Positions 30,001-33,000 are shown, numbered from the stretch's first letter. The stretch: DNA of 64,000 nucleotides from Chiloscyllium plagiosum (GCF_004010195.1 NC_057733.1:9253076-9317075); one strand, 5' to 3'. A program made the numbers and translations. The notes: generated by a model not told the origin, from the sequence alone.

Positions 30001-33000
30001 CCATACCAATAGTTTTCTTCACTATCTACCTGTGACTCCACTTTAAGGAACAATGAACCTGAACTCCAAGGTCTCTTTGCTCAGCAACATTCCCTAGGAC
30101 CTTAGCATTAAGTGTATAATTTTCTTTCATATTTACTCTTTGATATCTTTCCAACTAGTTGGTGGCCTATAGAATATATTCAAGTGTAATGGCATCGCTA
30201 CTGTATGAGCTGTCAATCACAATGGTGATTCCAAAAGTACTGAGAAGATGCATAAGACTTGGAAACGCCAACCAACAATTACTATAATCACATGAGCACT
30301 TTACTTCTGTTAAAAATAAGGAAACTTCCTTTATACAATCAATGGTCTGGAACCAAAAACAGGTCCAACAGGAAAAGGACATTATTAAATTTAAAATGTA
30401 ATCAGGATAGTTATATGATCAGACAAGAAATTGATTACAGATGAAAACACACTGGCTCAACTTAATAAAATTACAGAATTTCAGAAGTATTATTACCTTA
30501 GATTTAAATCTTGAAGAAAAACCAGGGCATTGAAATGAGCCCACAGGGTTATTATACAGCCAATTTATTTTAGACATGTTAATACCGCTATTGAAAACTG
30601 TCAGGAATTTCAGGAAATGCATTAACTTGTTATCCCAAAGGACACATTAAGGCATGTTTTATATTTTTTTTTGTCCTTTCACAGCACTGGAATTTGAACA
30701 CCTCTCAAGGCACTCCCTTTACTAGGAGTCATACATCTTTCAGATGCTTTATCCTACATCAAAATGCCATCGAATTCCAGGTATTTTTATTTCTTTCAGA
30801 ACTCTGGACTCCAGACATGTTTTTTTTAAATAAACAGAGGTCTTTTCAGTTCTTCATATTAACCCATTGAGGACTACCTGCACCAAAATCAATCATAGAA
30901 TTTTCTCTCTAATTGCCCAAGAAATGTTCATGTGGCTTCCAATTGTGGCTTGATATTTTAAGGATTCAAAGTGATTGAAAAGTGAGGAAAACATTAAGAA
31001 AATCAACAGCATAAAATAAAACTGGTTCTCAAGGGGTTAATAAAGGCAATTGAGAAACTAGTCTCAAAGCTATCTCCCAAAACCAAAAAGGCTCCATAAA
31101 GCAACAGAAAACTTAATAGTTTAAACAATCCTCGACTATAAAAAGCTGGAAAAAAAGAAAAAGGAATAAAAACTCTTACCTCCCTCAGACACATATCATT
31201 GGTCTATGTGGACTATTTATACCACTCCTTAAAGTGGTTCATTCATTTGTACCAAAAACAAGATTATATTTGTTTTCTCTTTGTTTAGGTCTACCCTCAA
31301 AGCCAGCAAATGCTCCAAGGAAGGCTGGGCAGGTCCTAGAGTTGAGGGCAGAGCAGAGCAGCTGGCTCCGAGGGTATCCGAGTGCGGGACATGAGCTCTT
31401 ACTTGCCTTGTCTTACAGGTTGGCATGGCAGCAGTAGATCAGTACTACTGAACAAACTATGCGCCAAGACTTACGATCTTACAGGCCCCTAGCTGGGGAC
31501 AAAGTGGGGGAACAAAAATGAAAGAGCCATGAGTATCAACCAGCAGTGACTACAAAGGAAGGAGTCAGTATAATACTGGCTCATAAATTTAGAATTAGAA
31601 AATAAAACTCCCTGTTCTCATTAAACCGTGCATTTCAGACTAATGTCGAAAATCAATTACAAATTTAATACCCATTTCTCCAATTGTCCCCCCGCCCCGA
31701 GTTTTAGGTGAGGGTTAAGACAGCTAAAGAATTTAATAAGTGTTGCCCAGGATCATATCATGTTTTTAACTTTACAAAATATTTGAAATGTATTAAATAT
31801 TTAGGTTGGAATTAGGAAGCAAATGTGCACTTTAAGCAAAGGTTTGCTATGAACACAATTGGACTATCCAGTGAAGAGAGTTACCTGAAGAAACTAAAAA
31901 AATGTACTTGTGCAAGGCACATACATTAGGGCTTGAAATTAATACTGATCCAGTTCTTGCACATGGAAAAGTAAATTCAAAGTTTTTTTTTAAATACAGC
32001 AGTCACTGTGCAAACTTCCACCTGTCAATTAATAAATTCTACATGAAGCTGAACAGTGTTGGGTTCTTAAAAGACTTGAGAGTTCTTGTATTTAAAGCCT
32101 CAAATCTGTGGCTTACACTCAGTCATTACAATCAGTTGCCAATCCATTTGGGCACTGGTACAATCATTTCACTTCCAGCTTTGAATTTACTTGCAACAGT
32201 TAGAATCTAGTGCATGCATTAAATTATTCTTTCAGACTATCAAAATTAATTTTGTATATTTGTATTCATAAAAACTTGCATATAATCCAGTCTAAAGGAG
32301 GGGAAAAAAGTCAGAAGGTGCTTAAAATCATTCACGTATTTTTTAAAAAATTTATAAACAAAAATAGATGTGCTGGTCAGGATTGTATGTACAAGTGGAT
32401 CCAACAATTAATTTTCAGCCCAAAGACTAAAGTGCCCTTTGCCCACCTCTATTTTAAATTAAAAGGACTATTCAATAAAAAAAAACTTGATATGATCCTT
32501 CAAGGGCAATTTTATAGTAAAAGCAAGCTTGAACTACACAAATTTATCAAGTGTTTTTAACACTACATATCATAAGTATAGAAAGTGACTGTAATTTCAT
32601 CTCACCTTTATGTGCCGAACGGTTTAGGAATCTAAAACCTGTAAAAACTGAACTGCTGTGAAAAGAAAATGGGGCTAAAACAAAAAAAAAAGACTTTACC
32701 ATTGCAAAAATATGCCATGTTGGCAAAGTGGAAGTTCTACAATTTAAAATACCTAGGCTAATTTACAAATGATTGAAATATTAAAAAGAAAATTGAAGCC
32801 AAATTCAGGAATCCTAAAAAGGGAAAACAGGAGGAAATCCCTGCAAAGGGGTGAGAAAAGGCTCCCTTAAAATGCAAAGTATCTTCCAGTAGCATTGATA
32901 CAGAACTGATTTCATTTGTGACGGTGTTATTGCAGATCTGCATCGTGAAGATGTTCTGTCACTCTTCAGTAGCCCAAGTTGCTATTTACCTTGCTGCAAA

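Follow-up and report, generated by a model that had tools for sequence, protein, structure and literature searches.

The window analysed here is a stretch of 64,000 nucleotides from Chiloscyllium plagiosum, and sequence comparison assigns the product of the exons on its minus strand to the U2AF65 family. Exon 11 of this gene is identical to that of a shark protein named 'U2AF65-like', and Callorhinchus has two versions of this exon, at 93% and 78%. A tree of exons 9-11 with 20 rows and a midpoint root separates an a-type from a b-type clade (SH-aLRT 99), and a larger tree supports the a-type clade at 99/99. The a-type clade, in which amniote U2AF2 is placed, contains proteins of macaque, turtle and snake, u2af2a of milkfish and paddlefish, and one chimaera and one ray protein. 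The b-type clade contains the gene in the window together with proteins of chimaera, bichir, sturgeon, gar and teleosts, and we take it to correspond to u2af2b by contrast with the proteins named u2af2a. No b-type amniote protein occurs among the 120 matches listed. Additionally, a second, more divergent U2AF2 transcript is present in RNA of C. plagiosum. Because cartilaginous and ray-finned fishes both have the two types, the tree places the a/b duplication in the ancestry common to these groups, which makes it older than the teleost genome duplication. PMC9304896 ascribes paralog pairs of such a kind in general to the teleost event.

The coding exons that flank the region of interest are joined in RNA contigs, where both the exon 7-8 and the exon 8-9 joints were seen (Table 1). 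We number the introns as in the human gene, on the assumption that this numbering applies to the gene in the window. A first-pass annotation had described intron 8 as a phase 0 intron between DDQ and VKELL, and the exons at 33602-33523 and 26184-26062 confirm this description. Intron 7 harbors a second cryptic exon candidate at 34192-34285 on the minus strand, with a long, AG-poor pyrimidine tract at 34480-34330, acceptors at 34285 and 34283 (CAG/AG/) and a donor ACT/GTAAGT at 34191; its 92-nt form has an in-frame stop and its 94-nt form shifts the frame. No match to this candidate at 80% was found in two of the distant fish RNA runs described below (X17 and X19) over the stretch compared. Exon 7 has an alternative 5' extension at 35330-35371 on the minus strand that inserts 14 amino acids into the RRM1-RRM2 linker and is annotated in nine cartilaginous-fish proteins, including one of chimaera. 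The window also has an assembly gap at 62922-63791 (a run of 870 N) and repeats at 29223-30119, 25680-25884 and elsewhere.

Table 1. Features of the b-type U2AF2 gene and of the cryptic exon in its intron 8. Coordinates are positions in the window, slashes within motifs mark splice boundaries, and L001 is the teleost-type locus described in the text.
Feature	Coordinates	Strand	Remarks
U2AF2 b-type coding exon 8	33523..33602	-	ends ...LNDDQ, phase 0, donor CAG/GTAGCT
Intron 8, host of the element	26185..33522	-	7.3 kb, phase 0
Block conserved with L001	31361..31550	-	167/191; core 31397-31540, 134/145
Candidate branch point TACTCAT	31529..31535	-	A at 31530, 38 nt before exon; TACTCAC in L001; predicted from sequence
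Pyrimidine tract and acceptor AG of cryptic exon	31493..31526	-	38/40 nt identical in L001
Cryptic cassette exon, 86-nt form up to GC donor	31407..31492	-	87 nt in L001
Donor 1, CCT/GTAAGA	31477..31482	-	10-nt frameshifting form; identical in L001
Donor 2, ATC/GTAAGT	31469..31474	-	18-nt in-frame form LGACKI; GTTAAG in L001, X17 and X19
In-frame TAG	31457..31459	-	reached by every form >18 nt
Donor 3, CCT/GTAAGA	31411..31416	-	CAT/GTAACA in L001, whose TAA is an in-frame stop
Tandem donors AAG/GCAAGT (GC, 31406) and CAA/GTAAGA (31402)	31397..31409	-	4 nt apart; identical in L001
Distal donor GAG/GTAAGA	31174..31179	-	313-nt form; outside conserved block
U2AF2 b-type coding exon 9	26062..26184	-	VKELL...VTDQ

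A cryptic exon with competing donors in intron 8

The cryptic exon starts at a strong 3' splice site, and the 5' splice sites that come after it are weak and staggered. On the minus strand the acceptor reads ...TTTGTCCCCAG/CTAGGGGCCT, with 31492 as the first exon base, and it has 21/25 pyrimidines (22/25 at exon 8 and 16/25 at exon 9) and an AG-free zone of 55 nt. The branch-point consensus is given as yUnAy (PMC2367711). The first-pass annotation had placed the acceptor at 31492 and donor motifs at 31482, 31474, 31416, 31406 (GC), 31402 and 31179, and every one of them lies where it was placed. These donors define forms of 10, 18, 76, 86, 90 and 313 nt, and translation agrees with the consequences that had been claimed for them. 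With the 10-nt form the frame shifts and translation ends within exon 9, with the 18-nt form LGACKI is added and the frame stays open, and the 76-, 86-, 90- and 313-nt forms stop at the TAG at 31459-31457. A premature stop is therefore found in five of the six forms, and it precedes the exon 11/12 junction by 415-736 nt, which is >50 nt.

The donor cluster is unlikely to have arisen by chance, with four GTAAG[AT] motifs in 90 nt (p ~3e-4). In 20,000 trials that placed the 34 minus-strand GTAAG[AT] motifs uniformly over 63 kb, four fell within 90 nt in 3 of 10,000 and five within 320 nt in 8.5 of 10,000, as judged by a post hoc test whose motif and width were picked after the cluster had been seen. 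Elsewhere in the window no 90-nt stretch on either strand has more than two such motifs. Pairing energies were predicted with what we take to be the sequence of the U1 5' end. Pairing is weak at 31482, 31416 and 31402 (-4.3 to -4.5 kcal/mol) and at 31474 (-5.7), the GC donor at -7.5 kcal/mol is within the range of real donors, and 31179 is strong at -9.6; the donors of exons 7-9 range from -6.0 to -7.7 kcal/mol. Five donors lie within a 90-nt stretch and three of them are conserved, in a 7.3-kb intron; decoy exons likewise are noncoding cassettes with competing splice sites in introns >1 kb. Microexons of the SRRM3/4 type have a UGC enhancer directly before the acceptor, and coding microexons are 3-27 nt long and preserve the frame. 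The LGACKI form is of this size, at 18 nt with an open frame, and the 35 nt upstream of the exon contain no TGC.

Conservation of the exon in a teleost-type locus

An 18-base scan of metagenome sequences recovered one true ortholog, the contig L001, on which exons 9, 10 and 11 come after the element in that order and whose protein is of the teleost b-type in the tree. The other five of the six scan loci were rejected as chance matches of 20-22 nt. The conserved block begins at the branch point and its core stops at the last clustered donor, and the flanks on either side are unrelated to L001 (52/154 and 37/111). Identity in the core exceeds that of the coding exons (exon 9, 96/123; exon 10, 64/87; together 160/210; Fisher p 5e-5), with 54/55 positions identical over 31473-31526. 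Of the 40 nt before the acceptor, 38 are shared at the cryptic exon as compared with 16 at exon 9, 11 at exon 10 and 13 at exon 11. A test set beforehand by the first-pass annotation was the presence of its motifs in an orthologous intron, and the acceptor and three of the six donors (31482, 31406 and 31402) are identical in L001. The idea of a single conserved donor cluster holds for these three donors but not for the others, as two are broken in L001 and 31179 is outside the alignable block. For example, the donor at 31474 is interrupted by an inserted T, while the first 18 exon nucleotides are identical. L001 does have a strong AAG/GTAAGA 268 nt past its own acceptor, in unalignable sequence where the chance of such a motif is ~5% per 400 nt.

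The insertion of 1 nt after exon nucleotide 19 in L001 changes the frame, such that the stop there is a TAA at codon 27 versus the TAG at codon 12 in the window, and stops result from six of the seven donor motifs listed in L001. Because the frame differs between the lineages yet both stop, the constraint, as read from these alignments, is on splice signals and RNA sequence and not on a peptide. Over 31397-31556, the alignments of four distant fish RNA runs show 6-10 differences each. One of them, X20, differs at 8 positions, with 1 gap, over 139 nt versus 21/126 in a U2AF2 exon 9 that is possibly that of the other paralog. A TAG-to-TAA change at 31457 in the four runs was considered as a conserved stop and was rejected, as the 1-nt insertion puts that triplet out of frame there.

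Several additional properties of the element were noted. A weaker conserved tail at 31361-31396 (minus strand) follows the last clustered donor with 25/36 positions shared with L001, its GGATAC core is also present in loose ends of X17, X19 and X20, and it is a possible intronic regulator site. A small hairpin at 31429-31450 (minus strand) inside the exon is predicted in both the window and L001, with z values of -1.9 and -3.5, respectively, for hand-picked 36-nt pieces, and the two L001 changes are located at the loop. Folding of the whole element was no better than that of shuffles (z +0.98, +0.21 and +0.97). Rfam gave no match over the block and a weak U4 match elsewhere (E 0.16), and the viral and prokaryote sequence collections gave no match.

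Fish gene models that enter the exon

Exon 8 continues into the cryptic exon in 11 of 76 b-type proteins that have an exon 8 end, representing 10 fish species, and in none of 64 a-type proteins, counts that derive from predicted gene models and from a b-type set that was partly enriched by targeted searches. Three of the 11 models end at ...HANM, the stop predicted from L001, and four run to the 31402-type donor (ending TRQ) and splice on to exon 9. Two others end at 45 nt and one at 9 nt. Several models use donors (9 nt, 45 nt) that simply preserve frame, and two are flagged LOW QUALITY. Among the 19 cartilaginous-fish b-type proteins, one, isoform X1 of a sawshark (P0141), is annotated with exactly LGACKI. 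Another three b-type inserts result from exon skipping. The exon accounts for a set of odd public gene models in the form of truncated or frame-corrected u2af2b proteins. Three unflagged RefSeq isoforms of Cottoperca (P0121, P0124 and P0126) contain the exon as an open 30-aa insert with one base fewer than L001, which may be a true deletion or an artefact of assembly or annotation. Eleginops has the same 30-aa open reading, but in a model flagged as low quality.

Possible splicing traces in RNA contigs

The RNA evidence consists of assembled contigs from seven of the 24 runs listed, of which X1, X11 and X13 are from C. plagiosum and X15, X17, X19 and X20 are from distant fish. The latter come from four studies, are labelled fish, fish gut or organism C, and were selected for containing this stretch; X17 and X19 share the same differences and count as one lineage. 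X1 and X11 are labelled 'DNA?' yet have spliced exon joints, and X1 is possibly the source sample. Contig depth is no guide to ranking the parts of a gene. Splicing of the cryptic exon is expected to generate assembly graph branch points at 31495 for the exon 8-acceptor joint, since exon 8 and the sequence before the acceptor both end in CAG, at 31406 for the GC donor-exon 9 joint (exon 9 begins GTG), and at 31481, 31473, 31415 and 31401 for the other donors. X19 has a 91-nt contig spanning 31406-31495 that ends exactly at the predicted acceptor and GC-donor branch points, with 30-nt overlaps with its intron neighbours and a depth of 10.2 versus 6.3 and 6.8. In X17 a contig starts at 31495, with a depth of 11.4 versus 2.8 upstream, and continues through the clustered donors. 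The junction-bearing branches are absent from the alignments of both runs, as expected for a match of ~30 nt, and splicing is read here indirectly, from the break points. Contigs of X15 and X20, two of the four distant runs, cross the acceptor unbroken.

In C. plagiosum the acceptor is crossed unbroken in all three runs, and no joint to 31492 is among the joints listed. An X13 contig contains the last 476 nt of intron 8 and exon 9, followed from 26061 onward by 86 unlike letters. The length of this tail fits exon 10 in spliced form, which has 87 nt of which the first G is shared, in which case intron 8 was kept and intron 9 removed. In X1 and X11 the contigs extend over much of intron 8 and also over intron 7, so that intron-derived RNA is not peculiar to intron 8; the single intron 6 bin is empty. 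No bridge from exon 8 into intron 8 is present among the listed X1 or X11 contigs. The listed X1 and X11 contigs leave the initial 80-240 nt uncovered in introns 8 and 7 (33421-33523 and 35130-35370) while covering the rest, and 33421 is an endpoint of contigs in both X11 and X13. A 37-nt piece of X20 at 27002-27038 was taken as a chance match.

Discussion

We consider it probable that intron 8 of u2af2b-type genes contains an ancient cryptic cassette exon that likely lowers the output of its gene through forms with a premature stop, and probably also through forms that retain intron 8. The exon is located in an intron of a splicing-factor gene, is conserved above the coding exons and has a stop >50 nt before the last junction, all of which are features of poison exons. 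Three outcomes would follow. Skipping would give mRNA. Inclusion would truncate the protein within RRM2 in five of six forms, >400 nt before the last junction, and the contig break points and gene models suggest indirectly that some bony-fish RNA has exon 8 joined to this acceptor and makes use of the GC donor; the truncated forms are predicted targets of nonsense-mediated decay and would be rare in ordinary RNA. Finally, where no donor wins, the exon may engage the intron ends without being spliced, and this stalled recognition would leave intron 8 in the transcript. Because the pyrimidine tract is a binding site of U2AF65 itself, more U2AF65 may lead to more recognition of the exon and hence to negative feedback, a proposal based on the known activity of U2AF65 and on a statement about human U2AF2 in PMC8091538. 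Inclusion and decay is better supported in bony fish, and retention is the only trace in C. plagiosum.

A pure decoy, an exon that is almost never spliced and whose sole action is to keep intron 8 in the transcript, is an unlikely reading. The large intron and competing donors 4-14 nt apart do resemble the decoys of OGT, SNRNP70 and SPTA1 (PMC7373989, PMC6097662), and the unspliced contigs over the element in all three C. plagiosum runs, together with a contig of the intron 8-exon 9-exon 10 type, agree with it. However, the break points of X17 and X19 and the 11 gene models point to real splicing at the acceptor, and intron 7 is likewise covered in X1 and X11. The decoy exon of the first-pass annotation is thus supported as a cryptic exon with competing donors, and a decoy role is possible, but the bony-fish evidence points to inclusion with a premature stop; a dual poison and decoy cassette fits better than a decoy alone. 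That annotation had alternatively proposed an 18-nt microexon. As the selected function, a coding microexon adding LGACKI to RRM2 is highly improbable in spite of its open frame, the identity of its first 18 nt in L001 and its annotation in sawshark. The donor is GTTAAG in L001, X17 and X19 (predicted U1 pairing of -2.6 vs -5.7 kcal/mol), none of 10 bony-fish proteins with the exon end at 18 nt, and four of them have R in place of C. Moreover, conservation extends 80 nt beyond the 18-nt donor, the form is missing from 18 of the 19 cartilaginous-fish b-type proteins, and the insert would be positioned inside the RRM2 of solved human structures. The microexon is, as far as these annotations and alignments go, a shark-side option.

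It is also quite improbable that the element is an alternative last exon, in which the acceptor is used, weak donors are read through, intronic poly(A) cleavage follows and the donor motifs bind U1 to tune premature cleavage. The X17 contig that passes unbroken from the acceptor through all clustered donors would agree with this, as would AATAAA at 30791 and 30569, the three gene models that end within the exon and, weakly, contigs that are deeper upstream of the element than downstream in X1, X11 and X13 (20-30 vs 7-9). Against it, the X19 contig ends at the GC donor, exon 9 follows by splicing in four models, the poly(A) signals are outside the conserved block, oligo-dT priming is possible at the A-runs at 30827 and 30672, and contig depth is unreliable for ranking. 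Ancient conserved non-coding elements occur in vertebrate introns, and the small hairpin is predicted in both species, which would agree with an enhancer of transcription or a small RNA encoded in the intron, the splice motifs being incidental. That explanation has very little chance of being correct, as the block coincides with the branch point, tract, acceptor and donors, has no Rfam match, folds no better than shuffles and shows splicing traces in fish contigs and gene models.

The class of mechanism to which a poison and decoy cassette would belong, that of ultraconserved unproductive exons of splicing-factor genes, is already well known. A conserved human U2AF2 poison exon has been described, with inclusion of 57.5% in EJC-bound RNA and <5% in RNA-seq (PMC8091538), and is also suggested in PMC6547761. 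It resembles the exon in the window in gene family, in its high conservation within an intron and in its premature stop, but it belongs to the a-type paralog, whereas the exon in the window is b-type. An unannotated human junction from the region of this poison exon (chr19:55661835-55662501; PMC8091538 and PMC6547761) leads into an exon whose first bases are GAGGC. The 5' site of this junction, GGCAA/GTAAGG, shares 10 nt (GGCAAGTAAG) with the tandem donors in the window, in a comparison that covers 15 nt of the human donor, and GGCAAGTAAG occurs once in the window. This match is notable. Seven of the 10 shared bases are GC-donor consensus, so convergence would be easy. We take the exon starting GAGGC to be human exon 6 (EAM...), which would place the human poison exon in intron 5, and the junction, after the hg38-to-hg19 offset, presumably falls in the track region of PMC6547761. 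At the exon 8/9 joint, six mammalian models carry 26-27 aa. This length suggests a mammalian intron 8 of ~80 nt, which is too short for the conserved block. The exon in the window is not the positional ortholog of the human U2AF2 poison exon, as it is in another paralog and another intron.

Likeness also extends to the decoys of SF3B1, OGT, ARGLU1, DDX39B and SNRNP70, which are noncoding cassettes with several nearby 5' splice sites in large introns of RNA-processing genes (PMC6097662, PMC7373989). Such systems are conserved to fish and have three outcomes, namely skipping, inclusion with decay, and retention (PMC6097662). They differ in having two donors where the u2af2b exon has five clustered ones. 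A U2AF2 decoy exon is not described in the portions of PMC6097662 and PMC7373989 available. The SR protein genes SRSF4/5/6 are likewise paralogs of one splicing factor with unproductive exons at different intron positions (PMC4379411), whereas U2AF65 is a core 3' splice-site factor. It is conceivable, though doubtful, that the a and b U2AF65 genes are both dose-policed by unproductive exons with the GGCAAGTAAG tandem GC/GT donor end in different introns, the module having moved or been re-invented after duplication; the u2af2b exon would then have kept a strong acceptor and a series of weak donors since the split of sharks and bony fishes and would act as a three-way switch (skipping, decay or retention), with one shark donor co-opted for a coding microexon in RRM2. 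The literature covered, which is mainly freely accessible papers and is without most subscription papers or splicing databases, gave no account of a u2af2b intron 8 exon, and nothing on it occurs in the accessible portions of PMC13075997, PMC7726792, PMC13247117, PMC11162794 and PMC9304896. Zebrafish u2af2b is reported to be differentially spliced in ageing (bioRxiv 10.1101/541417). The exon in the window would be a second, apparently undescribed control exon for U2AF65.

U2AF65 defines most 3' splice sites and control of its dose consequently matters. The paralog that contains the cryptic exon is older than the teleost duplication and is still present in teleosts such as zebrafish, which makes ~150 bases testable in a living vertebrate. 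The exon additionally offers a natural comparison in which selection keeps the 10-nt, GC and +4 GT donors and lets others go, and on which the proposal that decoys arise from competing donors can readily be tested.
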